The notes beneath the pieces are model-generated. The model did no database searches and was not told where the DNA came from. It saw nothing but the letters and a program-made list of their open reading frames with translations. From NCBI GenBank assembly GCA_020051845.1, contig JAGVQG010000057.1, forward strand, positions 1 to 57,742: a stretch of 57,742 nt of DNA, given 5' to 3'. The stretch is from an archaeon. GTDB lineage: Archaea > Nanobdellota > Nanobdellia > Woesearchaeales > ARS49. Positions 13,579 to 44,480 of this stretch are shown piece by piece. Numbering within the stretch: the stretch's first letter is position 1; every line of letters begins with the position of its first letter. The translations under genes were made by a program, and so were the position numbers.

Positions 13579-13609
13579 AGTAGTTAAAAAATGGTAAGAT
13601 TTATAAAGG
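13579..13609 (+). promoter_or_regulatory. Extended BRE-TATA promoter, shared motif copy 1
   Basis: AGTAGTTAAAAAATGGTAAGATTTATAAAGG; similar copies at 18576, 42346, 43582. Confidence 0.65.
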
Positions 13610-13629
13610 GGTGTTACTTAGCGCCTATC

Positions 13630-14517
13630 ATGGTCCATATCACAAAATTCACTGATGATTATATCCGGGTTCCTATGTTCCGCGGCCTTGAGGAAGTTGT
13701 AATATTCCCTGGTTCTGAGAATAGGAAATCAATCCCTAACAGCACGGTTTGGGTCTTCAATAAAGAAGGGCATTCGTATAAATCAGAGATATTGCATAAT
13801 GATGTTGGTTGCGGCGTAGCCGGTTTTATCATTTCACAGGTGGATGTTCGTGGATCGGCGGATAAGATATATGATCTGCTCGCGGGAAAGAATATCCTCG
13901 GAAGGGGCAATCATTTTGTGGACGTGTGCGGACCTTTTGATTATTCTGTTCAGGGAATCAATGAACCTCCACATAATCTTCTTTTAATACATTGTGATGG
14001 TAAGACTGTCGATTCTGCCGTTCCGCGTTCGATCGAGGATGCATTGAAAGTGCAGTTGCGCGCGGAACGGTTTAGGCTGGACTTGGGTGAGAGGATCATC
14101 AGTTCTATTGGTGCCAAGGGGAAACTGCTTGGTAACTGGACCCACAATAGTGTGGAGGTTGGTGATTCTGTGATTTATCGTAGGGGCGTTATTAAGGTTC
14201 AAAGTCGCAAGGTTCATCCTTTTCTACGGAGCGTAGGAAGACCGATCGAGTTCTACTCATTCGATGCTGTTTTGCCTGTTTATGACTCGATGCCTCATGG
14301 AGTGGGACGTAAAGGTCCGCTTGGTGAGACTAAGGTGTCATTGCAGGATGCTGCTGCTTTTAGGGCGCGGGTATATGTTCCTGCGGGCATAGCTGACACT
14401 TCATTGAGAAGCGAGCATCCTGATTGTTATAGGACAGGTAGTGATGTTAACAGAATATGTAAGGATATTTTGTGGTTGGGTAAAACTGACGTTCTTGCGT
14501 ATGTTGGAAAGGTTTGA
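13630..14517 (+). CDS. rtcB: Compact, divergent RtcB-family RNA ligase
   Basis: NDVGCG, LG.GNHF, IH, HN, PHGVGR and E.P..Y motifs in RtcB order; only ~295 aa. Confidence 0.75.
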   Translation: MVHITKFTDDYIRVPMFRGLEEVVIFPGSENRKSIPNSTVWVFNKEGHSYKSEILHNDVGCGVAGFIISQVDVRGSADKIYDLLAGKNILGRGNHFVDVCGPFDYSVQGINEPPHNLLLIHCDGKTVDSAVPRSIEDALKVQLRAERFRLDLGERIISSIGAKGKLLGNWTHNSVEVGDSVIYRRGVIKVQSRKVHPFLRSVGRPIEFYSFDAVLPVYDSMPHGVGRKGPLGETKVSLQDAAAFRARVYVPAGIADTSLRSEHPDCYRTGSDVNRICKDILWLGKTDVLAYVGKV

Positions 14518-14543
14518 GTCCTCCAATCGGTTCTTTTAGGTAT

Positions 14544-17500
14544 TCAATTGTTCACAACTAGATGTATGCTCTTAGATGGCAATCCAGGTAGTTTTATTTC
14601 GACATTCACGTGTGGCTCTTTGAGCGGTGTTCCAAGATCTATCTCGGGCGTTTGGTGGATCCTCCAGAATCTCCTGAAAGTCACATATACATTAGGATCG
14701 ACATAATTGATCTCGTCCGAATATGATATCAGTTGGGCGAGATCGGTCTTGCTTATTCTTGTCACGAGCAAGTCTGTTCCTTCGAGTTTCTCCGCGTTTT
14801 GATATGCTTCTTTGATTATGGGGCTGATTTCACTGGATATTATGTTTCTTTTCAAGGATGTCTGTGATTTTGCTTTCAGGAAATAGTCGGCCGCCTCTTT
14901 CGCTATCGTCCGGAGTGTGCCATCGAGCAGCAGTATCCTGTCCTTGTCTGTTGTCATTGTTTCGTATTTTTCGAGAGTCGAATCTATGATGGCCATGTTT
15001 TTCTCTGATAGGATTGTGTCCCTGAATTTTTCCAGGGAATTCATCTCGGATATCGATGCAACTCGGTTGGTGCCGGGTTCACCAAGTATCCTGTTATCCG
15101 CTTTGTTAACGAATGTATCCAAGCTAGGTAATAAGTGGTCATCTATTATCTCGGTCTTTTCAATTGCTAGGGAGTAACTTGCTATATTTGGGTCATATTG
15201 TCTCAATTCCTCGCGTGTATTGATCAATGCCTTCAATTGTTCGTTCATTTTTCTTAGTGTTTTGCTCATTTTTAACGCGCGGTTGTCGGTGTCTGTGATT
15301 AGTGATTCCCATTCAGGGTCGTTCGAAGGTCTTTTTTGATCTTGCGTTCTTATTATATCGCCAATCATTCCGTTTCGGATCTCGTGAGGGACAAAATCTA
15401 TTTCAGGAGTCCATCCATCTTTTATGGACGCCATAAGTTCAGGAGTGAACATCACGCCTTCCACGTTCCTGAATAGATCACCTTTGCCATTTCTTTCGAG
15501 TGCCAGGAGCAGATTGTTGAAATCTCCATTCTTCACATCAATGCTCAGGATATCTCTTGATGTGGGGTCTAGTGCCAAGCGCACTGTTTTTGACAGTTCG
15601 CTCAGGCGCTCGCTTTGCTCTTGCATCAGTGGTATTCCCGCGTTTTGTCGTGAGAGCAGGGACACGAATTCTTCCTCGATTGATCTCAATGACTCGCGTG
15701 CTTTTGCGGATGTGATCAGTCCATGGTACATTTCGTGCAGGTATAGATAGTTCGTAGCTTGTTCGTCTTTTATGCCAGGTATCTCTTTTTTCAGCTCGGT
15801 TTTGGCCGTTTTGAAATCATATAAGCTGTATGGTTTTCCGTCCGAAAGTGTGAATTCAGCCCCCACCACTTTCTTACCTACGCGCATGAATCTCGGCGTC
15901 TCCTTGGATTCTATCTCCTCTACGAGCTGCTGCTCGACGGCTTTTCCTTCCACGAGCCTGTTCCAGGTGCGCACCGCGGCCTCGCTGATCTGTGCAGGAC
16001 TCAACCAATTGAACTTATCGCCTTTGGCGCTGACCATGTCTCGCGCCGTCCTTGCGGTCTCTGCTATTGTTCCTATGATGTTTATTGCTGGGTTCGTGAG
16101 TATCGACAGAACAGCCGCTGCTCTTCCCGTCCTTGCCGCGACTCCTGCCGGAGTTGTTTCAGGCACGAGCGAAGGGCCTGTCGTTCCTGCGGGTGCCGGT
16201 GATTCTACGCTTTCGAAGAATTCAGCGTATCTTTCCCTTCTTGCAAGGGATCTTTGAAGGTCTGCCGCGAGGAATCGGGGGTTGGCGCTGGACCATTTGT
16301 CAGCCTCGACCTGCATATCCTCTATCACGAGTTGTGTCTTGCGATATTGGGATTCCTGCAGGTTTCCGTACCTTAATTTGGCAGTCAGGTCTATTAGGGC
16401 ACTGTCTTCGCCTCGCATGTAGTCGTCCATCATGCGTCTTAGCTCGTTGTCCGTGATCTCGTTCTTTGATCGCGCTATTAGCGCGTTCTGGAGCAATCGT
16501 TCGCGTGCGCGCATCGCGGTCATCTCTTGGGTTGATGAGAATCGTGTCAGGAAATCGTCAGTAGGCGCGCCCTCTATCTTTGAGAGCATTTCATCGATCC
16601 TTTTGCTTGTGGTTTCGGTGTTGTCTCTTATCGTCAGCGCTAGCTCTCGTCCGCGCACTTGCTTGTATAAACTTGAGTCGTGGTTGGCCATCTGGACGTT
16701 CATATCTGCGCCGAGTTTGGCTTCAGGGTATACTGCCCAATAATCGAGCTGCTGCTTGATCATCTCTTTTGTCGGTCTAGTGTATCCTTGGTGTATGAGT
16801 GTTGCTGTGGCAAGCTCTGAGTCTTTTGCCCGTATTTGAGAATCAGTCAGTCCTCCAAGCCGGTTCTGTTCATTCGCTTTGTTTACGGTCTTGATTATAA
16901 GGTCGGGCACCAAGGATAGTTCGCCAGCTTGAAGTGGTACGTCGAATGCGTTGGCCTGTTCATGCAATTCGACGATCTTCAGCATTGTGTTCTCATTTAG
17001 TGTGGCTCTGACTGATGTGGCCATCAGTTCTGGCGCGCTCATCCCTGCGTCCTTGAATATCTGCTCGAGTTTCCCTGGTTCGAGCAATCCTGTGGCTTTC
17101 GCTTTCTCTACGAGCGCGAGTCCTGTGCGGGCCATCTCTGCCACGTCGAACTTTCCATCCGCTTTCATGAAGGCGTTCGGTGGAGTGTATGCTGGGATGT
17201 ATGACGCGTCCCCTATTCCGTCGACAGAAAGTCCTTTCTCGGTCTGGAACGCGGCTCCGCGATCAACTGGCTCTATGTTGATCACGGGTTTTCCATCGCG
17301 TGTTATGGGCTCTCCTTTTGAGTTGCGCGCTTCTGTGTATGCGAAATTGGTGCCCATGTCTACGTGGTGTGTTGCGAGCATCCTGGTCCAGGCAAGCATC
17401 ATATCGATGTCAGGGCTGGTGAGTCTTGCCAATCCGCTTTGTATTGCGCTGTGTGCCAGGTTTTGGTCTATGGCGTTCTCGAGCAGAGGCACAAGGAGTA

Positions 17501-18493: not shown

Positions 18494-18575
18494 AAGCACT
18501 TCTGGTATACTGGAGTATATAAAAGTTGTCTAAAGATTACTGTGGTTAACCATTTATATATATTAATCACTGATA

Positions 18576-18605: not shown

Positions 18606-18633
18606 TCGCGGATATAGGGGGTGAAGAACGGAC

Positions 18634-19530
18634 ATGGTAGATATTGAACTACGTGACATTATTGATGGCTTCAAGGATCCTGAATACGCGATATCTCGTA
18701 TGAAAAAGGATATTCCTACTGATGCTACTGTTCTTGAGGGTAGGATTCGTGATGCGGGTCTAAGGTTGGTCGGCGCCTCGCAAGGGCATCCTGCAAGACA
18801 TCTGGTGACCGCTATCGGCACTTTTCACGACGACCCTGAGCAGGACGCGGCTGTTGTTAGCTACATCTCTTCTTTCAAGAAGGTTTACAGGACACTATAT
18901 TTGTCAGAGGGAGATAAAGGGACTTATGATGTTCCGCTCTCACTTCGCATTAATGGAGAGTTGGCCCGTCTAGGCTGTATAGGTCCTGATGGTCGTCTTG
19001 TGCTTGGTGAGCTTGGATTCTTGGATAAACAGATGGCTGCATTGTCCGATGAACTTGTCAAGGACAAGCGTCTTATTATGGTGCTTAGGAATGAGGGTCG
19101 CGTCAAGGTCAGGAAGATAAAGTCCGATTCTGTCGAGGCCAAATTGGCGCCGTTCTGGTTCGAACACAAAAGTGAGGTGCGTTTCACCGAGGATATTGAT
19201 GCATATGCCGATCAGAATGCGGCCAATGCGCGCTATATCGAGACTATGAACGGTAAGCAGATCCCTGTCCCAGGAACGAAGGAATATGATGCTTGGGAAT
19301 CATTGTTCGCAGGAGTGGTTCATGGAATGGCTTCACGCGACGATCATTTTATTTTCGACGCGACCACTGAATCTCGCTCGCGTCCTGTGATATTGAGGGT
19401 CGGAGCAGGCCACATCATAGGTGGTACTTTGGGTAAGTTCATGGAATATCAAGAAGTGCCTAGTATTCTGTTGTTGCCTGATAAGCCATTCAAGTCTTTT
19501 TTCGGCCAAACATCAAGAATAGGGTCTTAG
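18634..19530 (+). CDS. ChaN/EreA/TIKI-like protein, paralogue of 42396..43115
   Basis: IG.FH, LYLSEG, RD..., VGAGH.IGG.L motifs; no signal peptide. Confidence 0.6.
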   Translation: MVDIELRDIIDGFKDPEYAISRMKKDIPTDATVLEGRIRDAGLRLVGASQGHPARHLVTAIGTFHDDPEQDAAVVSYISSFKKVYRTLYLSEGDKGTYDVPLSLRINGELARLGCIGPDGRLVLGELGFLDKQMAALSDELVKDKRLIMVLRNEGRVKVRKIKSDSVEAKLAPFWFEHKSEVRFTEDIDAYADQNAANARYIETMNGKQIPVPGTKEYDAWESLFAGVVHGMASRDDHFIFDATTESRSRPVILRVGAGHIIGGTLGKFMEYQEVPSILLLPDKPFKSFFGQTSRIGS

Positions 19531-19908
19531 TTCTATCAACCTGTCCGCCAGGTCGCCTTCACATATATCTGTGCCGCTTGTTATGCTTGTTGTGATGGAC
19601 GCAGGCAGCAGTCCTGCTTCGTACGAACAGGTCATCTCGCTGCCTTCCAGATATTCAGCCATCCTTGGCGTTGCGTTCTGTATCGAGATCATCCTTTTTC
19701 TCAGCACACATCCATTCTCGGTGATCCGCGCGCTTCCACGATCATCTATGACTGTCATACTGGCTTCTTCGCAGGCGTTCGCTTTCTTCTCGAAGCAGGC
19801 AGCGTTTGTTCCGCAATCAGTGGTCGGCCAGGACAGCCATATCGTCATCCCGACAAGCGCGATCATCAGGATTGCCGTTATTATCATCCATCTCTTTTGG
19901 GTTTCCAT
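19513..19908 (-). CDS. Membrane-anchored six-Cys protein, paralogue of 43125..43532
   Basis: TM then DCG....CF......C, C, M.C, C.G.L.D.L pattern; starts 1 nt after the giant gene stop. Confidence 0.8.
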   Translation of the reverse strand: METQKRWMIITAILMIALVGMTIWLSWPTTDCGTNAACFEKKANACEEASMTVIDDRGSARITENGCVLRKRMISIQNATPRMAEYLEGSEMTCSYEAGLLPASITTSITSGTDICEGDLADRLIELRPYS

Positions 19909-19909
19909 A

Positions 19910-22900
19910 TCAGGTTCTGCAGGCTAGTTTCGCTGCCTCGATATCTCTTAGCGCTTCTGTGATCTTTACGATGGGTTCTGTCGACCTTGTCGTCACGTCG
20001 CGTGTCAGGTCGGCGTCCTTTGGCGAAGCCTTTGACTTTGATGCGGATAGCGACGCTTTCTGCGCTTGTTCGGCTATCGTGCTCTCTTGGGCTGCGGCAG
20101 GGGGTTGTGCGTTTCCTGGTCTTTCCAGTCTCACGAATGCGAGGCTCATGTCATCGTTGTATATGCGCTTGATGCTTCCGTCTTCTATGGTCTTGTATTC
20201 GGAAAGCAATTCCGCGCTTTGGCGTCTTGCTGCGCTACCTATGAATGTGTTATCAATCCATCTTATCGCGCTATCTACCGCTGCTTTTGTCGATTCCCAA
20301 GACTTAGTGAGTATGTTGTTGGCTTTTTTTGGCAGGTATGCTTCTTCTGTGACTATCTTGTTGAACTGTTCACGCATGGCTTCGACTTCGGTGTAGTCGT
20401 TCGAGACTTTTTTGCCTAGTTCAATCATCTCTTTCGCTGAAGGCACCGCTCCCTTATCTAGTACTTCCTGCAGGCGCGCGTCGAATGACTTGAGTTTTTC
20501 TGGTAGTTGGCGTTGTATGAAGTCATTGATTTTCGCGATGTCTGATTGCGATGCGCCCGCGCGTTCCATCCTCGCTCGGACTTTTCTCGCTAGTTCTACT
20601 ATCTCAGGGGATCCTGGTTGCATCGCTTTTTCGGTGAGCGCGTTCAATTCTGATATTTTTATTTGTATTTCTGATTGTAATGTCTTCTGCACCTCTGCAG
20701 GTGTTCTCAGATCCATTGTCTTGAACATCTTTGTTCTTGTCAGGTCTGTGCTCTCAGCTATTCCGTCATTGCGCAGCACCACTGCTTCGAGTCCGTTTGT
20801 CGGTAGTTCGACGCTCTTGACATTTCCGACCACTCCTACCACAGTGCCTCCTTTTGCGGCTGATGGGTTGAATAATAGTTTTCCGTTCACTCTGCTTATC
20901 GTGCTGATGTCGTATCCGAACATGTGCGCTGTCGCGCTCTGGCTGTTCACGTCAAGCACGACTCCGCTCATGAAATGTCCTGGTAGGCTCTTCATGTTCG
21001 CTTTTGAGACGATTGTTGCCATCTGTTTCAACAATTCATTGCGGCCCATCACTGGTGATAGTGCAATCTCCAATTCCGCGTATGTCGCGCTTGTTATTGG
21101 CTTGCCGAGCGTGTTCTCTACAGTGGTTCTCTTCTGCGCTTCGAGTTTGAGCGCTAGGTCCTGCAGCGCGTATCTGCGCATCCTTGAGGTGTAGGCTCTT
21201 AGCGCAGCCGCTTCTGTGCCGTGGTTCTTCTGGTCGCTGAACTCAAAACTGATGGTGTCCTGTCCATTCACGTCTTTGAATGTCCTTGCGCTTACAGTGT
21301 CGCCTCCGAATGTCTGCAGTTGTTGCAGCCACAGGCCCACGTCTTTGACTCCGATGGCTTTTGCCACTGCTTGCACGTCGGCAGGGAGGTCCTCTAACCG
21401 TGATGCTTCCATGCTCTTGGCTTGCGCGAGCTCTTCATAGGTTATCCTTCCGCCAGGCAGTGTCGCCGGGTCTTTCTTTGTGGCTTCTGTGACGAGTGAG
21501 TTCGCGAAGTCGGATACTGCCCTCTTTGCTATTTCGACACTTGTCTGCACAGCTGAATCTTGTGTGGTGGAGAATGTCTCTATGTGTCTTGTTAGCGCCT
21601 CCACCATTATGTCTGCTTCTACCAGTTCAGGTTCACCTCGCAGTTTCTCGAGCCTCTTCACTGCGTCATTGAGGGTCAATGTCTTTCTTTGGCCCCCGAT
21701 GACGATGTTTATCTCTTCGGTCTCTTTTGCCGCGGGTACTAGTGTCTCTCTTATGAACACGGTGGGTGTCCTTGTCTCTTCGCCCATTATGGTCTCAAGA
21801 CGCATCTGAACCTGCTCTGTGAGAAGTGCGGATTTGGTGTGGTCTTGCGCGGTGTAATCCGTAGACTCTATCCTTGTCTGCAGTTCTTGCAGTATGCCTT
21901 GCTTTCCTTGCAGCACTTCTTCTCTTGTGGTGATTCGCAGTTCGTTGACTATGTTTCGTATCGCGGCTTTTTGTTGTTCTCCGCGCAGTGCGGTCGTCGC
22001 ATGTAGCGCGTCAGGTGCTGTGAGTGGGTTGTTCACCCATTCCGCAATCCGTTGTCGGGTTATGATCTCTGTCGCCGCGAGAACCGCGCGTTCGTACGCG
22101 TTGCCCGAGACGAATTCCCTTGTCGCGGCCGTGTTCTCGACGACGGTTTTCTCGATTCCGGCTGGGAATGCCTGTCTTTGCGCAGCAGCTATCACGTCTT
22201 GCGGTGTGTTTGGTGAGTTTTCGTATAGTTCGGGATTTGTCGCTCGTTCCAGCTCCTGCCTGACTCTCCACGCCTCGCGCAGCACAGTCCGGTCTGTCGG
22301 GGGTATTGTCGATATGAAGTCGGCCTCTGCCAACAAGCCTATCTCATGCGCTCGTGTGGGTGAGAAGCCGTGGTTTAGCGCGGCCGCTTCAGATAGTTCG
22401 TGCGTCAGTATCATCTTTTCCAGTTGTGCTTTCTGGGCAGGGTTTGCCGCTACCCTGTCTGTTATCATCGTGGTGAACGCGTCGATGTTCTCCCTGATTA
22501 TGACTACTTCGTAGATCGGCCTTCCCGTGATCGTGTTTATCCCGATCTCCCTTCTTGTCGCGGGGTCTAGTACAGGGTCGCCGGCAGTTCTTGTGGATTG
22601 GACGCTGATCTTAACTTCTGCCGCTATCGCAGGATCTTGCAGTCCACGCACTGGCAGTTTAGGTAGTTCGATTGTGTTGACCGCGGATAGGACTTTCGGG
22701 ATCACTTCAGATGCTTCTTTGTTTGTCTCTGCTGTTGATTCGACGCTTTCCTTGCCGACTGCGCGTTCGATGACTTCCAACGATCCCAAGTATGCTCCTT
22801 TGTTGCCGTATTCGGCGCTGATGAATTCTTTGCTTCCGATCTTGAGGCCTTGTAGCTGGCTGGGTTTGAGGTTGACCTCTTTTGTTGGTTGTATATTTTG

Positions 22901-36991: not shown

Positions 36992-37944
36992 GTTATTTGT
37001 ATTGGGATATTAATCTTCCAGGTCGCTTCTTTGTTGTCTGTTATAGTGACGATTGCTTCATATGTTCCTTCGGAAGCAGCGGTTACGGTCAGTGTGCCGT
37101 CTTGCTCTATCGTCGAGAACGGGCTGTCGACGGAGTAGGTTATCGGGTCGCCGTCAGGATCGCTACCTTCGATTTTCACGGTCCTTCTGTCGTCCGTGTG
37201 CATCACGAGGCTTACGGGTGATGGTGCATATGGTGGATTATTAGGGGTCAATATTACAGCGAAGGCGAAGGTCGCGGATCCTCTGTTGAGTCTGAAGAGG
37301 ATGGTGCCAGGACCTTGTGTCAGATATGTGATATTCGAGCCAAGAGATTCATGCATTCCTAGGTCTATGGCGTCATCGGTTATTGATGCAGCTACTGTCG
37401 CGGCATCGTCCCTTAGTTCGAGAAGTGGGAAGTTGTCCGCCGCGGTCATTTGTGTTATCTGCTGTGTGAAGTTGCCTTTCGATATCGTCATGTCCCATGT
37501 GAGGGTCGCCGTTACTTTGCCTGGTTTTGCGTCGACCGTGACTTGAGGCGAGTCTCGTCTTTCGACGTTGAATCCAAGTGCCTGTATTTTTTGGGGGTCT
37601 GCGCAGATCGTCAATAGTTTGACCGTGAGTCCTGCGATGTCTGGAGTTATTGAGTCAATTGGTGGGACAGAATCTCCTTGGGCGTCTCGTTCAATCACGA
37701 CAAACTCTGTTCCTATGTCGATCGCGTTGGTGGGCCTTACGGCATATCCGCCAGTGCCTGCGACGAACGTGATTGCGTCGTGTAGTGATGTCTCGAGGCA
37801 GGATTGTATGAGGCTTCTCGCCATTCCTGTGTCAACAACCACCGGTTTTGGCGCGCTAGTCTGAAGCATTAACACGAACGCGACCGTTATCACCACAAGC
37901 AGTCCGATTATCATGAATATCGTGAGTTGCGCGCGTCGTTTCAT
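36988..37944 (-). CDS. Class III signal peptide (pilin-like) protein with C-terminal cadherin/Ig-like domain
   Basis: MKRRA|QLTIFMIIG; C-terminal N.PP...DPDGDPITYS...VTITD; ATGA-coupled to the giant gene. Confidence 0.8.
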   Translation of the reverse strand: MKRRAQLTIFMIIGLLVVITVAFVLMLQTSAPKPVVVDTGMARSLIQSCLETSLHDAITFVAGTGGYAVRPTNAIDIGTEFVVIERDAQGDSVPPIDSITPDIAGLTVKLLTICADPQKIQALGFNVERRDSPQVTVDAKPGKVTATLTWDMTISKGNFTQQITQMTAADNFPLLELRDDAATVAASITDDAIDLGMHESLGSNITYLTQGPGTILFRLNRGSATFAFAVILTPNNPPYAPSPVSLVMHTDDRRTVKIEGSDPDGDPITYSVDSPFSTIEQDGTLTVTAASEGTYEAIVTITDNKEATWKINIPIQIT

Positions 37945-38426
37945 GGTTGGCTCCTGTGGGTGTAGAAGTATTCCGCTCCTCGCAGCGGTATGGCGTCGCT
38001 CATCGAGGGTGTTATTGCTGTTGTGAGATGCACTTCGACCCCACGTACAGTCATTGTCCCCTCGTAATGAGTTATCGCTGTGAGATTTCCGTCTTTGTAC
38101 AGTATCGTTTGCGCGCTGGCAAGATGGGCGTCAGTGGCCAATTCGTTCATTTGTTTGATTAAAGGGTCCGCGGCGCGTTCAGACGCCACGACGCATAAAA
38201 GTGCTACGCAGAGATTGTTCTTGAGGTTTGGGGTTACGGTTATGCTTGGTCCTATGTGCTCGGTCAATAGCACACCTTTCTTTGCGAGATCGTGGACGTG
38301 CTTGTTGGTCCACCCGTAACTGAGGTTTATTTTTGCGGAGAGCTGTCGTATGGTTATGGGTCTGGGTAGATGTTCGAAATGGCGTATTATGGGATAGCCG
38401 CTAAGGGGTCCCTCTTTTATGCGCAT
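37941..38426 (-). CDS. Winged-HTH transcriptional regulator
   Basis: TIRQLSAKINLSYGWTNKHVHDLAKKGVL; first gene of the giant-protein operon. Confidence 0.75.
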   Translation of the reverse strand: MRIKEGPLSGYPIIRHFEHLPRPITIRQLSAKINLSYGWTNKHVHDLAKKGVLLTEHIGPSITVTPNLKNNLCVALLCVVASERAADPLIKQMNELATDAHLASAQTILYKDGNLTAITHYEGTMTVRGVEVHLTTAITPSMSDAIPLRGAEYFYTHRSQP

Positions 38427-38428
38427 AG

Positions 38429-38536
38429 TTGATTGTTATCAAATTATTAGTATATATATCTTTGCATTAGACTTATATTAATCTATATTATGATAACATA
38501 ATCAAAAAAATATTAGCATTATCATATTTTTGATAA
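38429..38536. promoter_or_regulatory. AT-rich promoter with TGATAA/TTATCA operator array
   Basis: TTGAT-tgtt-ATCAA (38429-38442), TGATAACATAATCAA (38491-38505), TTATCA-N6-TGATAA (38519-38536) around a TATA tract. Confidence 0.55.
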
Positions 38537-38574
38537 TAACATGGTGTTTATGACCCTGCTTTTCTGCGGGTTCT

Positions 38575-39174
38575 TCACTCTATATTGCGGGTGTCAACGT
38601 AGCTCAGAAGTGTCATAACCGTCACGATTCCCCATAGGTTGAAGAAAGTGGCCACAAAATATGTCACAGGGGCTTCTGCGATAACAGCCAACAATGTGAG
38701 TGTGAAGAACATGAGGTTAATGATCACCGCCATCAACCAGCGTGTCGCGTATTCTTTTTTGAGACCGATAGATATCACTTTCCGAGGGTTCAATGCAGAG
38801 CGCGCTTTTTGGGCTCTGCTAAGGATGAGGAATGCTGCTGGCACGAAATATGCTGCGCATAAGAATATAATTCCGATTAGCAGCATTGGCATCCGCATTG
38901 CGAGTAGCGAGTCTGCAAAAAAGGTGTATGCTGCAACAAGCACCAAGAAAGGTATCGCGAACCACTCAACAAGTATCATCAACGCGAACAAGGTGTGCAA
39001 AAGTAGTCTTCTGATTGGGGTGCGTGGTATTCCTGCATCTGCTTCAGTCATGCAGGATATGCCCAAACCCAGGAGAAGCGGGCTCAAAAGGGGGATGCTC
39101 GAGACTAGCCACCACAGTAGCAGGCGCAGCGGCCTGCGGAAAGGACGCGTCAATGCGGTTAGTAGGGATATCAT
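38575..39174 (-). CDS. Multi-pass membrane protein (DUF4013-like)
   Basis: AL..PF....LL, IP......LG, Y.VPAA, A.NP..VI pattern; several TM helices; ATGA-coupled. Confidence 0.6.
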   Translation of the reverse strand: MISLLTALTRPFRRPLRLLLWWLVSSIPLLSPLLLGLGISCMTEADAGIPRTPIRRLLLHTLFALMILVEWFAIPFLVLVAAYTFFADSLLAMRMPMLLIGIIFLCAAYFVPAAFLILSRAQKARSALNPRKVISIGLKKEYATRWLMAVIINLMFFTLTLLAVIAEAPVTYFVATFFNLWGIVTVMTLLSYVDTRNIE

Positions 39175-41261
39175 TTCTTTGTCTCAGGTTGCTTGACTTT
39201 CTGCACGGCATTCCATGCTTGGTTGTAGGATTCGGAATTCTCGAAGACGTATGGTTTGCCTCCGACGGTAATTGTTTTTGTGGTGGGGTTTCCGCTGACA
39301 TCTGCTGTCTTGGCGGCATCGATGATGCTTGTTATCCTCATGTTGAATTCAGTCGCGCTTATCAAATAAGGATTGGGAGTCGGCATCTCCTTTACATCCT
39401 TGTTCACTTCCACCTTCTTGTCGGCATCGGCAGGTGTTTTTGCGGGTGTCGCCGGAGTCGACGCCACTGTCGTCTCCCCTGGTTCCGCCACGAGCGTGTA
39501 CTTCTTCCCGTCCGATCCTGTGGCTGTGAATTCCGCGCCGATCGGTTGCGTCTTTGTCGTGGGTTTCTGTCCTTCTGCGCCTTTTGATTCTGCCTCGTCG
39601 ATTAGTCGCACAGGTCCTGTCTTGGCCGCGTTCGGGTTCTTTGGATCGTTGACGAGCGTGTATGTCTTGCCGTCATTGTTGACTGTGACAGTGCCTATCT
39701 GGCCGGTAGGTGCGTCTTTCGGAACATTGACGTTGACCGCGGATTTCTCCTTCTGTCCGAAGTCTTCTGTTGTTCTGAGCCGTGGATCGACTGTCGCGCT
39801 GACTGCCTTGGTCGGATCTAATGTTGTCTTGCCATCGCCGCCGTTGAGTTTGACGCTCACAGGGTTGCCGTCGACGTTCACGCCTCCGATGGCGCTGCCT
39901 GATATGCCGACAGTCCCTTTTTCTCCGAAGATGCCTCCGCCAGCTATCTTGATGTTCTTGTCAAGACCCAAATTGTTCGAAGCGACCTCTGTCTGCGCGA
40001 GTGTGACCAAGGCAGACATGGCTTTCGGGGATAGGTCGCTGCCAGAGAATTGCACTGCTGTCGGGCCCAGACCGCGTATCCTTCGCATCCCCTCGGTCAA
40101 GGGTCCGAGCGCGTCGCTTCCGTCTTTTGCGGGAGGATTGGTGAAGACTCCGATTTCAAAGCCTTTGGTGCCGGCTATGAGTAGGGCGGGGTGTTCATCG
40201 ACATCCACAAATATTTCTGACCCGTCTTGGGTTTGCAATTTGCCTTCTGCTCGGGTCACTGATGCGCGTGGGGCTCCTTTGGTATAATCGACTTTTAATG
40301 ATCCGGGTGTTTCGGAATTGGATTCAAGGAAGCTTTCTGAGAATTCGGAGTGGTAGAGTCCGAGGGCTAGATCTATGTCGTTGACTCTCCAACTCTTGCC
40401 TTCTATGCCTGCTAGCTGTCCCTTATCGTTGAAGTTGATCGCGGCATTCCCACCGCTCCAGATATCATATGATTCCTTCGTGTAGCCGTTGATTGAATGG
40501 ACTATGTTGGTGCTGCCTCCGATGACAGAGACGCTGTTGGGGGTGAAAGTGGTCGTGGCAGATTGAACACCTTTGCAGGTGAACCTGCCGGAGGGTGTAT
40601 CAACGGCGTATGCCGCCGTGGCGCCACGTATGGCCATTCCGTCCGCGGTGGCCAGGATAGTCGCGTCCTTCAGTCCCTTCTGCGAGATGTCGAGCGTCGT
40701 GGTCTTTCCGCCAGTTGGGCCTATGGTCATCTTGTTGCCGTTGAAGCCGACGTCGGCCGCTCCATCGACGCCGCAATTTGCGCCTGCGGTCGCCGCACAG
40801 TACTTGGATGCTATTATCTTGTCGTTCTTGTCAGCGACCGCCTTCTTCGGGTCTTTGCTGCTGAGATATTTGTTGAGGTATTCACCGGCCGCTTTTTTCG
40901 CGACAGGGTCTGTCTGGAAGTTGGCCTTTTGGTCATTCGCCATGTAATCCTTGAAGGCTTCCTTGCTCTTGTCACGGAAAGATGTGTAATCGCTATTGGA
41001 TGGTTTGCTTAGTTTCTTGAAATCGGCTGTCGTTGGACTTGCCAGCTTCTGGAAGTCTGCCGATGTAGGATTTGAGAGTTTTTGGTAGTCCGCCGATGTC
41101 GGGTTGGATAGTTTCTGGTAGTCGGCGGATGTGGGGGTTGATAACTTCTGGTAGTTTGCGGATGTTGGATTCTTCTCGAATTCCTTGCGCGGGTCTGCCG
41201 CGACGACTGCTGTCGACACTATGATTGTGACGATCATAAGTGCGACTAGGAGCTTTCTCAT
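39171..41261 (-). CDS. Secreted 696-aa protein with N-terminal 11-aa tandem repeats
   Basis: Signal peptide; PTSADYQKLSN repeats; Gly/Thr-rich beta region; ATGA-coupled to the pilin-like gene. Confidence 0.85.
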   Translation of the reverse strand: MRKLLVALMIVTIIVSTAVVAADPRKEFEKNPTSANYQKLSTPTSADYQKLSNPTSADYQKLSNPTSADFQKLASPTTADFKKLSKPSNSDYTSFRDKSKEAFKDYMANDQKANFQTDPVAKKAAGEYLNKYLSSKDPKKAVADKNDKIIASKYCAATAGANCGVDGAADVGFNGNKMTIGPTGGKTTTLDISQKGLKDATILATADGMAIRGATAAYAVDTPSGRFTCKGVQSATTTFTPNSVSVIGGSTNIVHSINGYTKESYDIWSGGNAAINFNDKGQLAGIEGKSWRVNDIDLALGLYHSEFSESFLESNSETPGSLKVDYTKGAPRASVTRAEGKLQTQDGSEIFVDVDEHPALLIAGTKGFEIGVFTNPPAKDGSDALGPLTEGMRRIRGLGPTAVQFSGSDLSPKAMSALVTLAQTEVASNNLGLDKNIKIAGGGIFGEKGTVGISGSAIGGVNVDGNPVSVKLNGGDGKTTLDPTKAVSATVDPRLRTTEDFGQKEKSAVNVNVPKDAPTGQIGTVTVNNDGKTYTLVNDPKNPNAAKTGPVRLIDEAESKGAEGQKPTTKTQPIGAEFTATGSDGKKYTLVAEPGETTVASTPATPAKTPADADKKVEVNKDVKEMPTPNPYLISATEFNMRITSIIDAAKTADVSGNPTTKTITVGGKPYVFENSESYNQAWNAVQKVKQPETKK
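40971..41168 (-). repeat. 33-nt coding tandem repeat, ~6 units
   Basis: PTSANYQKLST/PTSADYQKLSN/PTSADYQKLSN/PTSADFQKLAS/PTTADFKKLSK/PSNSDYTSFRD. Confidence 0.85.
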
Positions 41262-42274: not shown

Positions 42275-42345
42275 GTTGTTGAGGCCCTTTTAATATGTAA
42301 CTGTGGGTGGTCTGACCAACCACCTGCTTATTGTAACTACCAACA

Positions 42346-42375
42346 AGTAGTGATAAATAGGAAGGTTTATAAAGG
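42346..42375 (+). promoter_or_regulatory. Extended BRE-TATA promoter, shared motif copy 3
   Basis: AGTAGTGATAAATAGGAAGGTTTATAAAGG. Confidence 0.65.
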
Positions 42376-42395
42376 GCAAATGAGTATGTGCCTTG

Positions 42396-43115
42396 ATGGC
42401 GCTATTCGATCCACAGCTCTACTTGAGGCGACTCCATGACCCGATGGCTCATTTCGGACGTGGTTCTGCGCTTGAGGAAGGGCTTGCAAAGGATACCGGA
42501 ATGCGTTTCTATGATAGTCATGCTTCTAAATGCAGAAAAATCGTTCTTTTGGGCGATTTGCACAACGTAGAGCCTGTCCAGAAATCTATCTTTGATTTCG
42601 TGAAAAATAACCACGTTGATGGTATGCAGTATCTTTGCGAGTCTGCGACCGGTGAGTATGATTTCACTCGTTCAGCGCGTGAACCTGACGATGAAAAAGG
42701 TCTCAAACCTATTGTGATGACAGATGGTAAGGGAGTTGTCGTGAACAAGGTCTACGTTCCTTCTTGCAACTATATCGTCGCTTTGCGTGATTTTTGGCAG
42801 TCGAAGAACTGCAAGGTCAGGGCGGTCCAGGATATGGGTTTGTGTTTCGAGGATATGAGGTGGGAGTATGTCGCGAGGAAGCGGTTGGCTGTCGGCGATC
42901 TTGCAGGCGCGGCTGACGCTGGCGAGAAGATGGCTGAAGCATTGATAGAACGCGACAAATATTTCGCGGACAACGTGGAGAGGATTGGATCCGATGGTAT
43001 GCTGATCGTCGGAACTATTCATGTTATGGGTGGCGCTTTGCAAGAATTCCTAAGACAGAAAGGCATCGGTTATGTCTCGTTCGTGCACGACAGGGAATAT
43101 CGGCCGTTTGTCTGA
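42396..43115 (+). CDS. ChaN/EreA/TIKI-like protein
   Basis: VLLGDLH, YLCE, ERD...A, IVG.IH..GG.L...L motifs. Confidence 0.65.
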   Translation: MALFDPQLYLRRLHDPMAHFGRGSALEEGLAKDTGMRFYDSHASKCRKIVLLGDLHNVEPVQKSIFDFVKNNHVDGMQYLCESATGEYDFTRSAREPDDEKGLKPIVMTDGKGVVVNKVYVPSCNYIVALRDFWQSKNCKVRAVQDMGLCFEDMRWEYVARKRLAVGDLAGAADAGEKMAEALIERDKYFADNVERIGSDGMLIVGTIHVMGGALQEFLRQKGIGYVSFVHDREYRPFV

Positions 43116-43124
43116 TTGTCGTCG

Positions 43125-43532
43125 TTAGTATTTCTCGGCATTCGCGGCTTCAACCAACAATTGATGCAACGCGTCCTTCAAATTTCCTGTGCAGGTATTG
43201 CTGCCGAAGATGTCGATGATGGAAGGGTCGAATTCTCCCTTTGCGTGGGTGCATTGCATTGACTTGTATTGTAATGCGTCTGTTATTTGGGTCGTTTCGG
43301 CTGTGCTGAAAGATCCAAATCGCACATTCACTACGCAGTCTTTTGAATCGAATATTATCACACTGCCTGTCTCGAGCGTTTGTGTCATCGTCGCTCTGTT
43401 GCATTCCTTTGCCAGGGCGATGAAGCATTCTTTGTCCTCTCCGCAATCCTGTGGCGTTATGATGACGGCCGCGGTTATCGCCATTGTCATGAACACTGCC
43501 AATACGGAGATCACTATCCAGATTGTGCGCAT
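43125..43532 (-). CDS. Membrane-anchored six-Cys protein
   Basis: TM then DCGEDKECF...C...C...MQC...CTGNLKDAL; same spacing as 19513..19908. Confidence 0.8.
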   Translation of the reverse strand: MRTIWIVISVLAVFMTMAITAAVIITPQDCGEDKECFIALAKECNRATMTQTLETGSVIIFDSKDCVVNVRFGSFSTAETTQITDALQYKSMQCTHAKGEFDPSIIDIFGSNTCTGNLKDALHQLLVEAANAEKY

Positions 43533-43581
43533 GGGTGTGTTTGTTTCATCTTTGTTTCTTATATTATCTTAGTAACTAACG

Positions 43582-43611
43582 AGTGGTAACAAATGGAAAG
43601 ATTTATAAAGG
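43582..43611 (+). promoter_or_regulatory. Extended BRE-TATA promoter, shared motif copy 4
   Basis: AGTGGTAACAAATGGAAAGATTTATAAAGG. Confidence 0.65.
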
Positions 43612-43640
43612 TGAGTGGGGTGTGGTTCACTGATTCCACT

Positions 43641-44480
43641 ATGGTAATGGGTAATATCGCAGTGTTCACTTCCGACCTGCACGGCAATGATGATCAGTAC
43701 CAGAAGCTGCTGCGCTATGCGTCCACCCAGGCCATTGATACGGTCATTCTTGGCGGTGACCTTCTTCCGAAGAACGGGCCTCCGAACGCTTATGTACAAA
43801 TGCAACGCGACTTCCTTGAACACCTTATTGATGAATTGAAGGAGTTCAAGCTGAAAAAACCAAAGACTGTTGTGTATCTTATGCCTGGAAATGATGATGC
43901 TGCGTCCCTTCAGGGTGATTGGGATAAGTATGATGGTGAACTTTACAATAACATCCATCGAAAACGATTCCCGCTTTCAGGCACTCCGTATGATATTATT
44001 GGTTACTCTTTCGTTCCACTCACGAAATATCTGCTCAAGGATTGGGAGATGCCTGATGTCGCGGGCGGATTCAACGAATCATCGCTTAAAGGGGTTAGGA
44101 GCGAGGGTTTGCGTCTTGTTTCTGCTGTTGTCAATCCGAAGATAACGATTGAGTCTGATCTGGACTCCAAATATATGTACTTCAATAGCCGCAAGACAAT
44201 CCATGTTTTCCACGCTCCTCCGGTCGACACCGATCTAGATGTGGCGAAGGATGGAAGCCACATCGGCAGCAAGGCGATAAGGGATTTTATCCACTCGCAC
44301 ACTCCGTATTTCTCTCTCCATGGGCACGTTCATGGCACTGTGGCGCGCTCAGGAAAGTTCATGACGCCAGTGTCTGATTCCTGTGCTATAGCTGCGGGTA
44401 ATGATGATTGCAGTGATAAGCTGGCGATCATCACCCTGGACTTGTATGATCCTGGGTTGATGAGAAGGAAAGTGTTCTGA
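43641..44480 (+). CDS. Calcineurin-like metallophosphoesterase
   Basis: SDLHG, GGD, PGNDD, H.PP, HGHVH motifs. Confidence 0.9.
   Translation: MVMGNIAVFTSDLHGNDDQYQKLLRYASTQAIDTVILGGDLLPKNGPPNAYVQMQRDFLEHLIDELKEFKLKKPKTVVYLMPGNDDAASLQGDWDKYDGELYNNIHRKRFPLSGTPYDIIGYSFVPLTKYLLKDWEMPDVAGGFNESSLKGVRSEGLRLVSAVVNPKITIESDLDSKYMYFNSRKTIHVFHAPPVDTDLDVAKDGSHIGSKAIRDFIHSHTPYFSLHGHVHGTVARSGKFMTPVSDSCAIAAGNDDCSDKLAIITLDLYDPGLMRRKVF

Follow-up and report, generated by a model that had tools for sequence, protein, structure and literature searches.

The core of the island described here is an order-wide two-gene module, in which a gene for an adaptor with a class-III signal is followed by a gene for a large protein with a Sec signal. 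The island lies in a stretch of 57,742 nucleotides (the window) from the 1.33-Mb Woesearchaeota-type (DPANN) genome of a tiny archaeon of symbiotic type and is best explained as a hypervariable, fast-evolving surface-protein locus, holding two copies of the module and a third cargo-like gene. New here is that the three large island proteins, and the partners of short adaptors throughout the order, are purged of N-glycosylation sequons and nearly lack cysteines outside close pairs, whereas partners of long adaptors show neither purge. The first-pass annotation, made from sequence alone, had placed the DNA in a DPANN archaeon, as was borne out, and had proposed a pilus-associated, contact-dependent system for giant multi-enzyme effectors. 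The linkage of pilin-like genes to large secreted proteins stands; the multi-enzyme, ChaN-like and immunity readings are unsupported.

Gene layout and accessory genes

The layout described earlier, with its 4-nt overlaps and three paralogous pairs, is real, and the ORFs lie at the positions given in Table 1. Junctions overlap at 41258-41261, 39171-39174, 37941-37944, 36988-36991 and 18356-18359, and the six-Cys gene (19513-19908) starts 1 nt from the stop of the giant's gene. An open frame of 17 kb, as in the giant's gene, is impossible by chance. The 148-nt spacer 5' of unit 2 (24% G+C) contains TATA-like boxes and repeated TGATAA/TTATCA words. Each of the four plus-strand genes is divergent from a minus-strand unit, with spacers of 60-134 nt and 31-41% G+C. 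Paralogy in BLASTP was clear for the pilin-like proteins (318 versus 338 aa, E 2e-12) and the six-Cys proteins (131 versus 135 aa, E 3e-14, all six Cys aligned), and weak for the 298- and 240-aa proteins (E 2e-5, 20% identity).

Table 1. Features of the island, with positions in the window.
Feature	Position	Strand	Basis or remark
Adaptor 1, 338 aa	41258..42274	-	class-III N-terminus, paralogue of adaptor 2
Cargo 1, 696 aa, Sec signal	39171..41261	-	4-nt overlap with adaptor 1; sequon-free, Cys-poor
Polytopic membrane protein, 199 aa, closes unit 1	38575..39174	-	about 5 hydrophobic segments; 4-nt overlap with cargo 1
Spacer 5' of unit 2, candidate promoter/operator	38427..38574		direct sequence reading
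Putative winged-helix regulator, 161 aa, opens unit 2	37941..38426	-	HTH_24 E 0.007, sub-cut-off
Adaptor 2, 318 aa, partner of giant	36988..37944	-	class-III signal, AF2 model
Cargo 2 (giant), 5693 aa, Sec-type signal peptide	19910..36991	-	ORF, Pfam, composition
Six-Cys membrane-anchored protein, 131 aa, closes unit 2	19513..19908	-	N-terminal TM segment and six invariant Cys
Orphan, 298 aa (earlier 'ChaN-like')	18634..19530	+	convergent with and overlapping six-Cys gene
47-aa ORF, GTG start, possible ribbon-helix-helix	18356..18499	-	4-nt overlap with 1271-aa gene downstream
Cargo-like secreted protein, 1271 aa	14544..18359	-	no adaptor gene; signal peptide end ..TFASC
240-aa protein	42393..43115	+	convergent with second six-Cys gene; weak paralogue of 298-aa orphan
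Second six-Cys protein, 135 aa, stand-alone	43125..43532	-	paralogue of 131-aa protein
Calcineurin-like metallophosphoesterase, 295 aa, without signal peptide	43593..44480	+	Metallophos match; divergent from six-Cys gene
Short RtcB-family protein, 308 aa	13591..14517	+	62 homologues

The six-Cys family is present in 13 of 41 genomes. Its supposed linkage to large secreted proteins was found in three of ten fetched neighbourhoods and not in the rest. A homologue of the 199-aa membrane protein (E 4e-6) adjoins six-Cys genes in genome G005, and homologues of the 161-aa regulator lie directly 5' of an adaptor gene in G026 (E 1e-11) and G031 (E 3e-5). The helix-turn-helix label of this regulator has a weak match behind it (Table 1), and the ribbon-helix-helix label of the 47-aa ORF has no significant family match in the databases. 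All four plus-strand genes had been taken for enzymes; membership of an enzyme family is shown for two. The 295-aa product matches Metallophos above cut-off (E 1.6e-11, 45.4 bits), and the 308-aa protein has 62 homologues at 35-51% identity in Woesearchaeota/Nanoarchaeota records, several of them named RtcB family or carrying PF01139; its gene probably belongs to the conserved flank and not to the system. The 298-aa protein matches no Pfam or NCBIfam family and found only itself among 5.8 billion proteins (163-522 aa searched), which leaves the ChaN-like label without support. The proposed role as immunity or repair factors fares no better, since one of these proteins is an orphan, another a conserved RtcB-family member, and the same-genus genome lacks counterparts of all four in its syntenic island.

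The adaptor family and its large partners

The N-termini of adaptor 1 (..KRGQLSVIIML..) and adaptor 2 (MKRRAQLTIFMII..) confirm the pilin-like label as regards a class-III-type start. Of 15 aligned family members, 13 carry the motif [KR][GA]Q ahead of a hydrophobic helix, namely all four from the window and its own genome and nine of the 11 relatives. Adaptor 1 is 39% identical to a further copy, C40. An AF2 model of adaptor 2 (pLDDT 88) places a TM helix at residues 3-29, an alpha/beta domain at 40-231 and an Ig domain at 235-318; a low-confidence linker (residues 30-36) splits the hydrophobic helix from the globular part. The model shows this break in place of one continuous pilin helix, which counts against a pilin reading. 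Cys49 and Cys114 (adaptor 2 numbering) are conserved. The cadherin label holds for the C-terminus, which matches Pfam Big_9 (E 2.8e-5) as well as SraP and cadherin-23 and in VIA-align reached Z 11.9 with an rmsd of 1.6 across 84 residues. For the N-domain, a Foldseek structure search returned nothing at E<=1e-3, and in VIA-align the best Z was 6.5, with pilins at Z 4.2-4.7, within noise.

The adaptor family profile matched all 41 genomes of the order searched (a count that takes in G000 and the unpublished G010), with several copies per genome. Twenty stretches were fetched from 16 genomes; 24 profile-matching ORFs were found in 19 of them, and 22 lie directly 5' of a large protein with a hydrophobic N-terminus, the other two being a fusion of 2618 aa and one exception. 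In a second set such a partner was present for 15 of 17 new adaptors; these genomes are related and not independent samples. The background rate of such pairing in the window's own genome, which holds seven adaptor-partner pairs, is 29 of 1369 genes (2.1%). Linkage of the pilin-like gene to large secreted proteins is therefore conserved order-wide. The postulated link to a pilus also found backing elsewhere in the genome, which encodes one A24 prepilin peptidase, three T2SSE matches and four T2SSF matches, the ATPase and platform genes forming two type IV filament loci. Pilins beside these loci carry Q1 and E5. The adaptors lack E5 and their genes are not adjacent to the loci, a distance that counts against a filament reading.

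The cargo proteins have a signal peptide and no anchor of their own; in the giant the sole hydrophobic segment of this kind is N-terminal. Four closely spaced Cys pairs fall within its first 555 residues, followed by a long, Ala-rich, Cys-free body with weak TPR matches. Two patches, at about 2349-2560 and 3825-3860, are hydrophobic, uncharged and Gly-rich, and residues from about 4535 to 4700 form a tandem FHA region whose GR, SxxH and NG motifs align to GarA. Pfam, searched with ten segments of the giant at E<=1, returned no enzyme domain, PDB sequences gave no match apart from FHA, and no relative of 3131-9963 aa was found among 5.8 billion proteins. Judged by these searches the giant is a sequence orphan with tandem FHA as its sole recognisable module, and the idea of a giant multi-enzyme effector is unsupported. 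Cargo 1 has an 11-residue N-terminal repeat (..PTSADYQKLSN..), three Cys in total and a weak paralogue 3' of the C40 adaptor. The 696- and 1271-aa proteins match no Pfam or PHROG family, and the latter has no homologue in the fetched loci. Long-adaptor cargo has FN3-like N-termini. Comparison of cargo N-termini revealed no detectable shared homology that might mark a common docking site.

In the same-genus relative G001, the same genomic slot between the same housekeeping genes holds an unrelated giant of 4888 aa. Flanking genes of G000 and G001 are 66% and 75% identical, whereas the adaptor is 26% and the six-Cys proteins are 28-31% identical (31% for the 135-aa copy), and the giants are unrelated outside one 110-residue patch. 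The C-terminal end of the G001 giant is pyruvate-phosphate-dikinase-like (PPDK-like), with ATP-grasp and phosphohistidine matches (E 2e-39 and 3e-17); against the PDB this module aligned at E 4e-77, including the catalytic His region.

Sequon and cysteine depletion of the cargo

Together the three large island proteins contain one N-x-S/T sequon against 56 expected (giant, 1 versus 39.9; 1271-aa protein, 0 versus 9.1; 696-aa protein, 0 versus 6.9), and the single one is at residue 2 of the giant, inside the signal peptide. Shuffling the giant 1000 times gave a mean of 39.9 sequons and a minimum of 19, and control motifs are frequent in it ([ST]xN 31, QxS/T 37, DxS/T 52). The genome encodes an AglB/STT3 oligosaccharyltransferase; its genome-wide observed/expected sequon ratio is 1.26-1.42, and its other giants are sequon-enriched (397 versus 195 expected). 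Nine of 75 testable proteins are depleted, all with a hydrophobic N-terminus and five of them partners of short adaptors. Among relatives, again related genomes and not independent samples, short-adaptor partners have 12 sequons against 129.6 expected, long-adaptor partners 72 against 106.8 and other ORFs of the loci 314 against 324.8. A replicate set of 13 adaptor partners gave 39 against 82.7; the ratio is 0.4 or lower for 11 of them, and the remaining two, like two of the 12 partners from the first set, are not depleted.

Cys makes up 0.24% of short-adaptor cargo, where most occur as pairs spaced by 3-9 residues, and 2.36% of long-adaptor cargo. The 1271-aa protein has no Cys outside its signal peptide; that it is sequon-free without an adaptor gene counts against the pilin-anchored reading. 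Since the same adaptor N-domain precedes Cys-rich cargo with near-normal sequons, the adaptor itself is not specific to threading.

Export, delivery or display

Because sequons and distant Cys have been purged, short-adaptor cargo appears to be exposed to AglB and to oxidation and to have to stay unmodified. The simplest explanation is that, once exported by Sec, it is threaded through a narrow passage while extended. Scarce, closely spaced Cys characterise proteins that meet an oxidising compartment and then pass unfolded through a narrow channel, and autotransporter and type I RTX adhesin passengers share this trait. Those are bacterial outer-membrane systems, and the added purge of sequons is a feature particular to an archaeon that has AglB. 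Pilin-anchored export or display of such unmodified, threaded cargo has, in our estimate, an even chance of being correct. In each module the first gene encodes an adaptor whose short class-III leader and hydrophobic helix precede two domains, a conserved alpha/beta one with a disulfide and a cadherin-like Ig domain; the translationally coupled second gene encodes anchorless Sec-exported cargo (696 and 5693 aa). The single prepilin peptidase would cut the adaptor, which would then join, probably in the role of tip or minor subunit, a type IV filament whose assembly machinery lies elsewhere in the genome. There it would hold the cargo and carry it across the envelope, to be displayed on the host cell or handed over to it.

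Coupling of a class-III-signal protein to an anchorless Sec-exported protein resembles minor-pilin/tip-adhesin modules of type IV filaments (bacterial PilY1 with minor pilins, GspK). The adaptor lacks Glu5, which the genome's canonical pilins have; GspK, a tip pseudopilin in type II secretion, lacks it as well. Unlike such modules, those described here stand alone, away from ATPase and platform genes, and occur in seven copies in the genome; the adaptor N-domain lacks a clear structural match to solved pilins, and the cargo, without sequons and with few Cys, can be as long as 5693 aa. Archaeal type IV filament loci encode large adhesin-like and PilY-like proteins, the systems are scarce in DPANN, and such cassettes are absent from the available part of that account (PMC13705601).

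Contact-dependent delivery, by which short-adaptor cargo including the giant would enter host cytoplasm or membrane as a polymorphic-toxin-like effector while six-Cys protein or metallophosphoesterase protects the producer, is doubtful but keeps some weight. An all-or-none purge is what a second narrow translocation step would select, FHA is a cytoplasmic-type domain, the PPDK module of the G001 giant needs ATP, and the hydrophobic patches also fit. As in polymorphic toxin or contact-dependent inhibition systems, a large secreted protein sits in a hypervariable locus at a fixed site, with small variable genes 3', and the relative's giant ends in an enzyme module. However, no known toxin domain occurs in the window giant or five other cargos, divergence spans the whole protein beyond the C-terminal tip, the product of the gene 3' of the giant is an extracytoplasmic membrane protein, which typical immunity proteins are not, six-Cys genes follow large secreted proteins in only three of ten fetched cases, plus-strand genes are not conserved along with the system, and no translocon was identified. 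A hypervariable archaeal module arranged like polymorphic toxin systems, VARTIG of Thermococcales, centres on Ig-domain proteins and, in the accessible part of its description, has no counterpart reported outside Thermococcales (PMC8416519). It is unlikely that adaptors are filament-free membrane anchors (class-III or signal-anchor) tethering elongated, mostly alpha-helical giant adhesins; equally unlikely, as part of that reading, is that sequon and Cys scarcity stems from fibre packing rather than translocation. Anchorless cargo, the adhesion-type domain of the adaptor, the Ala-rich body with TPR-like stretches and long-adaptor cargo resembling ordinary surface proteins all agree with plain display, as do the large adhesin-like proteins of archaeal filament loci, going by the available account (PMC13705601). 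Giant DPANN surface proteins are also known: the SPEARE proteins of Nanohaloarchaeota (4000-8500 aa) are mostly extracytoplasmic, with a proposed role in host interaction. Yet SPEARE proteins, in the accessible part of their description, have laminin-G, serine-protease, toxin-like and restriction-endonuclease domains, a transmembrane anchor and no adaptor gene described (PMC6642349); the window giant has none of these domains in Pfam. One glycan in 5693 residues should be harmless to an adhesin, yet sequons are all but gone from the giant and enriched in the genome's other giants, and neither FHA nor PPDK-like modules have an obvious extracellular role. We consider it very improbable that the giant is tape-measure-like or virion-associated and the island an integrated mobile element or virus remnant. 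Tail-fibre-like ORFs (PHROG E 1e-14 to 9e-22, Peptidase_S74 E 1e-11) lie 5 kb rightward at 49153-52326, island G+C (0.46-0.53) is somewhat below that of the left flank (0.52-0.56), in the Atlas the 298-aa orphan has viral 'hypothetical' clusters as neighbours, though with scores below 0.9, and the giant combines a high Ala and low Cys content with Gly-rich hydrophobic patches. Against this, the 1271- and 696-aa proteins, scanned against PHROG, matched no family, no integrase, capsid or terminase family occurred among the genes scanned, a second species has the locus flanked by the same housekeeping genes, every searched genome of the order has several chromosomal copies of the module, and Sec signal peptides with sequon purge indicate cellular export. 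For pilin-anchored export or display, the stripped glycosylation sites and cysteines suggest that the cargo is built for threading through a narrow passage.

Adaptor and cargo genes across the order

Every ORF described in the first-pass annotation was recovered at its coordinates, 4-nt overlaps couple the genes within the minus-strand units, and the three paralogous gene pairs reported there were confirmed (E 2e-12, 3e-14 and 2e-5). The contig (C12) belongs to a genome of 1.33 Mb (68 contigs, 96.6% complete), and genes for a thermosome subunit, a glutamyl-tRNA synthetase and a NOG1-type GTPase flank the island. The nearest clusters of the pilin-like protein and the homologues of the 308-aa protein, both given below, place the organism among DPANN archaea of the Woesearchaeota type. 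Paralogues of the two class-III-signal proteins, here termed adaptors, were found elsewhere in this genome, each immediately preceding a large protein (the cargo) whose N-terminus is hydrophobic, usually with a 4-nt overlap. Adaptors of 328, 319, 647 and 723 aa precede proteins of 754 (contig C40), 1347 (C58), 2255 (C24) and 1218 aa (C65), respectively, and a partial adaptor copy precedes a 689-aa protein on C41. Together with the two in the window, the genome contains seven such modules.

A profile built from four adaptor copies matched all 41 genomes of the order, a count that takes in the genome under study and the unpublished G010, with several copies in each. From the top of the match list, 20 stretches of 16 genomes were picked, and 19 of them contained a total of 24 profile-matching ORFs. 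A large protein with a hydrophobic N-terminus directly follows 22 of these on the same strand; 21 partners range from 669 aa to above 4835 aa, and the remaining one is truncated at 339 aa where the locus ends. In the relative G005 adaptor and cargo are fused into one protein of 2618 aa, and the one partnerless ORF is lipoprotein-like and lacks the class-III motif. Lower-ranked matches gave 22 ORFs with a matching N-terminus, of which 4 lay at contig ends and 1 was a duplicate locus; 15 of the 17 new adaptors have a secreted-type partner of at least 508 aa. As a background, 29 of the 1369 genes of the window's genome (2.1%) precede a secreted-type protein of at least 600 aa in such an arrangement. 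Linkage of the accessory genes to large secreted proteins in other genomes, which the first-pass annotation had made decisive for its proposal, is thus clear for the adaptors. For the six-Cys family, present in 13 of 41 genomes, it stood in part, being seen in 3 of 10 fetched regions.

A small, putative winged-helix gene lies just ahead of the adaptor in the window and in the relatives G026 and G031. The spacer upstream of the HTH–adaptor–giant unit (24% G+C) contains several TGATAA/TTATCA words and TATA-like boxes, and may act as the operator of the 161-aa regulator. An all-against-all phmmer comparison of 15 stretches of 450 residues from cargo N-termini found just one orthologous pair, and a common docking motif was rejected on this basis. 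A net charge of -5 or lower over about 40 residues after the signal peptide was found in 11 of 16 short-adaptor partners (loci L034-L042) versus 10% of other secreted-type proteins; this acidic start is not seen in the two cargos of the window.

The single-contig genome G040 packs at least five adaptor-like genes into some 30 kb, and four of these genes are followed by a large secreted protein, so that the window is not alone in gathering cassettes into an island. Downstream of the C40 cassette lie genes for large membrane proteins and for an AAA+ ATPase that looks MoxR-like by eye from its N-terminal sequence. This neighborhood is reminiscent of the putative secretion system that PMC5898192 describes around arCOG01314.

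Coordinates of features in the window and at other loci (lengths in aa unless noted)
Feature	Location	Strand	Length
RtcB-related 308-aa protein	window 13591-14517		308
Cargo-like protein without adaptor gene	window 14544-18359	-	1271
298-aa protein	window 18634-19530		298
Giant	window 19910-36991	-	5693
Adaptor preceding the giant	window 36988-37944	-	
Spacer, candidate operator	window 38427-38574		148 nt
696-aa cargo	window 39171-41261	-	696
Adaptor preceding the 696-aa cargo	window 41258-42274	-	
240-aa protein	window 42393-43115		240
Metallophosphoesterase with six-Cys gene	window 43125-44480		
Metallophosphoesterase alone	window 43593-44480		
Tail-fibre-like ORFs, adjacent	window 49153-52326	+	542 and 509
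Tail-fibre-like ORF, weak match	window 56444-57598	+	
Metallophosphoesterase with six-Cys gene	fetched locus L033 7018-8450		
Metallophosphoesterase with six-Cys gene	fetched locus L053 6008-7314		
Metallophosphoesterase with six-Cys gene	fetched locus L054		
Giant of same-genus genome G001	L084:1512-16178 (contig G001:C4)	-	4888
Adaptor cluster of G040	L037, L082 (C1:17609-62900)		
Cassette with MoxR-like gene, own genome	G000:C40:14890-25968		
Sequon-enriched ORF, own genome	G000:C4:9366-39344	-	9992
Sequon-free protein, own genome	G000:C5:14682-17012	-	776
Pilin genes of the C5 filament locus	G000:C5, from 17957		
ATPase gene of the C5 filament locus	G000:C5, at 22346		

Adaptor fold, the giant and the remaining island genes

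Both window adaptors start with a short basic leader that ends in [KR][GA]; next come Q and a hydrophobic helix roughly 20 residues long. Of 15 aligned family members, 13 carry [KR][GA]Q. The N-terminus of the giant's adaptor reads MKRRA, then QLTIFMIIGLLVVITVAFVLML, and that of the second adaptor ..SKRG, then QLSVIIMLGAVMLIAAALILYV, with predicted cleavage between the two parts, a position given by the motif alone. The mature proteins would start QLTIF and QLSVI and, unlike polymerizing pilins, have no Glu at position 5. In the pilin-like ORFs that adjoin the filament loci of C5 and C27 the pattern is Q1...E5; E5 is missing from the adaptors throughout. Tip subunits typically have no Glu5, tip pseudopilins such as GspK among them. 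By analogy, the missing residue suggests a tip or initiating role of the adaptor and is compatible with a minor pilin. The genome encodes a single A24 prepilin peptidase (one PF01478 match, on C19) and, at two loci on C5 and C27, an assembly ATPase together with a platform protein (three PF00437 and four PF00482 matches, respectively). The peptidase, ATPase and platform genes are all located outside the window.

An AlphaFold2 model of the adaptor, based on a 15-sequence alignment, reached a pLDDT of 88. The hydrophobic helix (residues 3-29) is joined by a linker of low confidence to an alpha/beta domain (40-231), which contains an invariant pair of cysteines, and a beta-sandwich (235-318) forms the C-terminus. 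The alpha/beta domain has no clear relative among solved structures, and Foldseek returned no match for it at E<=1e-3. Modeled by itself, the N-domain reached a pLDDT of 92, and VIA-align paired it with the pilins PilX (Z 4.7, rmsd 3.7, 87 aligned), P1 pilin (Z 4.3) and PilJ (Z 4.2), the best Z against any structure, 6.5, being still within noise. The model is compatible with a pilin-like domain, a helix packed on an antiparallel sheet. The cadherin-like or bacterial Ig label of the C-terminus holds: Big_9 was matched over its cut-off (E 2.8e-5, 25.4 bits versus 23.6), and the sandwich superimposes over 84 residues on SraP (4m00_A, Z 11.9, rmsd 1.6), with numerous domains of cadherin-23 and protocadherin-15 next in the ranking. 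In the Atlas, the adaptor comes closest to Woesearchaeota clusters labeled 'hypothetical proteins' (0.98 and 0.97). The full-length profile gave 50,011 matches at E<=1e-3 among 1.84 billion representatives, a list swamped by cadherin-repeat giants that yields no usable family size; the best 150 include 10 full-length proteins of 314-504 aa. Complex prediction for the second adaptor (residues 40-338) with the 696-aa cargo (23-696), run without controls, scored 0.30 versus a mark of 0.32 and counts neither for nor against binding.

The giant has a Sec-type signal peptide and no further hydrophobic segment at a threshold of 1.6. Four tight pairs account for eight cysteines, all in the first 555 residues, and one more lies near the C-terminus; the long, Ala-rich body contains two uncharged hydrophobic patches. 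An FHA domain at about 4535-4604 (PF00498, E 4.8e-15, 56.2 bits versus a cut-off of 20.7) is followed by a weaker second copy. It aligns to 3gqs and GarA with IGRD, SGRHAE and SKNG in register; GR, SxxH and NG are hallmark motifs of FHA domains. When ten segments were compared with Pfam at E<=1, no enzyme domain was found and FHA alone exceeded its cut-off, the PDB sequence search matched FHA domains only, and a motif scan revealed no HExxH, no Walker A and one GxSxG. Because these searches find no enzyme domain, the earlier multi-enzyme reading is unsupported, and the picture of the giant as a chain of enzymes is corrected here; divergent, undetectable enzyme domains may be present. Neither internal repeats nor similarity to own-genome proteins of at least 600 aa was found. 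In 40 related genomes no homologous stretch appeared beyond two short patches in G001, and a search of 5.8 billion sequences, confined to proteins of 3131-9963 aa, recovered the giant alone.

Most of the supposed accessory enzymes turned out to be orphans or ordinary conserved genes. The label ChaN-like (ChaN or Tiki-TraB-type) could not be maintained for the 298-aa and 240-aa proteins, which match no Pfam or NCBIfam family at E<=0.1 and whose nearest Atlas clusters are unnamed (at most 0.89). The 298-aa protein, the one of the pair that was searched, has no relatives in the sequence search. The 308-aa protein has no Pfam match of its own (NCBIfam E 0.016); its 62 homologues (35-51% identity), from Candidatus Woesearchaeota or Nanoarchaeota archaeon records, include entries named RtcB family or carrying PF01139. 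By homology it appears to be a conserved short form (about 300 aa) of the RtcB family, better seen as a flank gene. A calcineurin-like metallophosphoesterase gene adjoins the six-Cys gene in the window, G001 and the relative G022, and lies close to it in G005. In a crude motif scan, metallophosphoesterase-like genes were also seen near adaptor cassettes in G026 and G005, which makes for a tentative link. Outside the island, the adjacent tail-fibre-like ORFs match phage PHROGs (E 4e-14 for the 542-aa and 9e-22 for the 509-aa protein), the latter with an intramolecular-chaperone domain, Peptidase_S74, at its C-terminus (E 1e-11). These ORFs might encode surface proteins of a fibre-like type or be what is left of a virus.

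Sequons and cysteines in cargo proteins

N-x-S/T is the sequon of N-glycosylation, and a gene for the oligosaccharyltransferase AglB/STT3 is present in the genome. The giant contains a single sequon, which falls within the signal peptide (residue 2), versus 39.9 expected and a minimum of 19 in 1000 shuffles. Control motifs occurred at normal levels (reversed motif 31, QxS/T 37, DxS/T 52). The 1271-aa and 696-aa proteins have no sequon at all (9.1 and 6.9 expected). The genome as a whole has an observed/expected ratio of 1.26-1.42, and its other giants are about two-fold enriched, the 9992-aa protein, for instance, with 397 versus 195. Among 75 proteins with at least four expected sequons, the ratio was 0.2 or below in nine, all with a hydrophobic N-terminus; five of these partner short adaptors (about 320-340 aa) and three lie in the island.

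The pattern, spotted first in the window, was repeated in the own genome, the relatives and a replicate set, with adaptor classes set by length ahead of the sequon and Cys counts. In the relatives, the 4888-aa giant that occupies the window giant's slot in G001 is sequon-free versus 26.1 expected, the G031 giant has 1 versus 33.7 and a G026 protein 0 versus 22.0. Cysteine content parallels this division: Cys makes up 0.24% of short-adaptor cargo, where most of it occurs as pairs spaced by 3-9 residues, versus 2.36% of long-adaptor cargo. Since related genomes are not independent samples, the depletion is given without a P-value.

Sequon counts by adaptor class
Protein set	Observed	Expected	Spread
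Short-adaptor partners, own genome	2	63.6	
Short-adaptor partners, relatives	12	129.6	10 of 12 with 0-1
Short-adaptor partners, replicate set	39	82.7	11 of 13 at <=0.4, two outliers
Long-adaptor partners, relatives	72	106.8	
Other ORFs of the same loci	314	324.8	

The own genome has 28 ORFs of at least 1000 aa, and further large ORFs show the opposite of the island proteins (131 versus 48.5 and 106 versus 42.5 expected). A secreted 776-aa protein adjoining the type IV filament locus on C5 has no sequon (10.5 expected). In the 1271-aa protein, the end of the signal peptide (..AQSTFASC) resembles a lipobox and holds the protein's sole Cys.

Variable cargo and the possible role of the cassettes

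In G001 the island is bordered by the same two genes, for a methyltransferase (66% identical) and a PHP-type protein (75%) of the TIGR00375 family, that of endonuclease Q. Between them the adaptors are 26% and the six-Cys proteins 28-31% identical to those of the window, the metallophosphoesterases are not alignable, and the 1271-, 696-, 298-, 240- and 308-aa proteins have no counterpart. The two G001 giants (4888 and 2944 aa) are unrelated to that of the window save for a 110-residue patch. The C-terminus of the longer one matches PPDK_N (ATP-grasp, E 2e-39) and PEP-utilizers (phosphohistidine, E 3e-17). Its last 515 or so residues align to PPDK in the PDB (E 4e-77, residues 10-514 of 874), the catalytic His region included. 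The module is truncated and lacks the PEP/pyruvate domain; speculatively, this acceptor-less form might act as an ATP-consuming module or as a phosphotransferase module for proteins or small molecules. No Pfam domain exceeded its cut-off in the G031 giant or in five other short-adaptor cargos. ATP-dependent and FHA modules are normally cytoplasmic. Despite these cytoplasm-type modules, the FHA- and PPDK-bearing giants have signal peptides, and they bear the mark of exposure to AglB.

We see an about even chance that the prepilin-type adaptor anchors or presents a Sec-exported cargo that otherwise has no anchor, probably on a type IV filament, and that short-adaptor cargo is threaded, in extended form, through a narrow passage after export. 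Such threading would be the reason why this cargo is kept free of glycans and long-range disulfides. The passage would end either at the envelope of the producer, as display, or in the host cell, as delivery. The cadherin domain and the long-adaptor class are also accounted for by a plain adhesin, which leaves the sequon purge unexplained; we regard this reading as rather improbable. Delivery, by contrast, would explain both the all-or-none purge and the cytoplasm-type domains, and has against it the lack of a toxin domain, a translocon or a convincing immunity gene, so that we hold it to be doubtful. In its full form, a hitherto undescribed two-step route of Woesearchaeales in which the adaptor takes up giant, Sec-exported cargo free of glycans and long disulfides and threads it across the envelope into the host cell, where the cytoplasm-type modules act, it is likewise a tentative proposal. 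A mobile-element origin of the island is very unlikely.

Known systems differ from the island in several respects. Polymorphic toxin systems combine a known C-terminal toxin domain, a conserved N-terminal body and a downstream immunity gene. In contrast, Pfam scans of the window giant reveal no toxin domain, it diverges from the same-slot G001 giant throughout, the shared patch apart, and the next gene encodes a membrane-anchored extracytoplasmic six-Cys protein; a functional resemblance is nevertheless possible. As described in PMC6642349, SPEARE proteins carry laminin-G and other adhesion domains, a serine protease, a restriction-endonuclease domain and a transmembrane anchor. These domains are absent from the giant in Pfam, and its only hydrophobic segment at a threshold of 1.6 is N-terminal. 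Archaeal type IV filament loci encode large adhesin-like proteins and PilY-like adhesins (PMC13705601), and VARTIG is a hypervariable module (PMC8416519); with SPEARE these are the nearest systems described. The paper listings, passages and abstracts searched describe no stand-alone, multi-copy adaptor–cargo cassette in Woesearchaeota, no sequon depletion in DPANN secreted proteins and no sequon and Cys depletion of cassette cargo. DPANN-specific clusters such as cls.004306 and cls.004634 are treated in PMC6393860 and PMC5898192, and the adaptor family may be named among clusters of this kind.

The combination of adaptor N-domain, downstream Sec-signal protein and sequon/Cys depletion defines a searchable module, which flags a candidate host-interaction secretome in each genome of the order examined and splits it into two cargo classes. 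The ways in which DPANN archaea attach to their hosts and exploit them have long been in question; Woesearchaeota are uncultured and, to our knowledge, almost nothing is known in this respect about them. The purge is an internal indicator, readable from sequence only, that cargo passes the glycosylation machinery yet must remain bare, and it gives specific, testable predictions that proteomics, cryo-tomography and export assays in a heterologous host could address. If true, the delivery route would give archaea their first contact-dependent system for effector translocation; its hypervariable orphan effectors would reach 5693 aa, and their modules would include FHA here and a PPDK-like, ATP-consuming phosphotransferase in the sister species.
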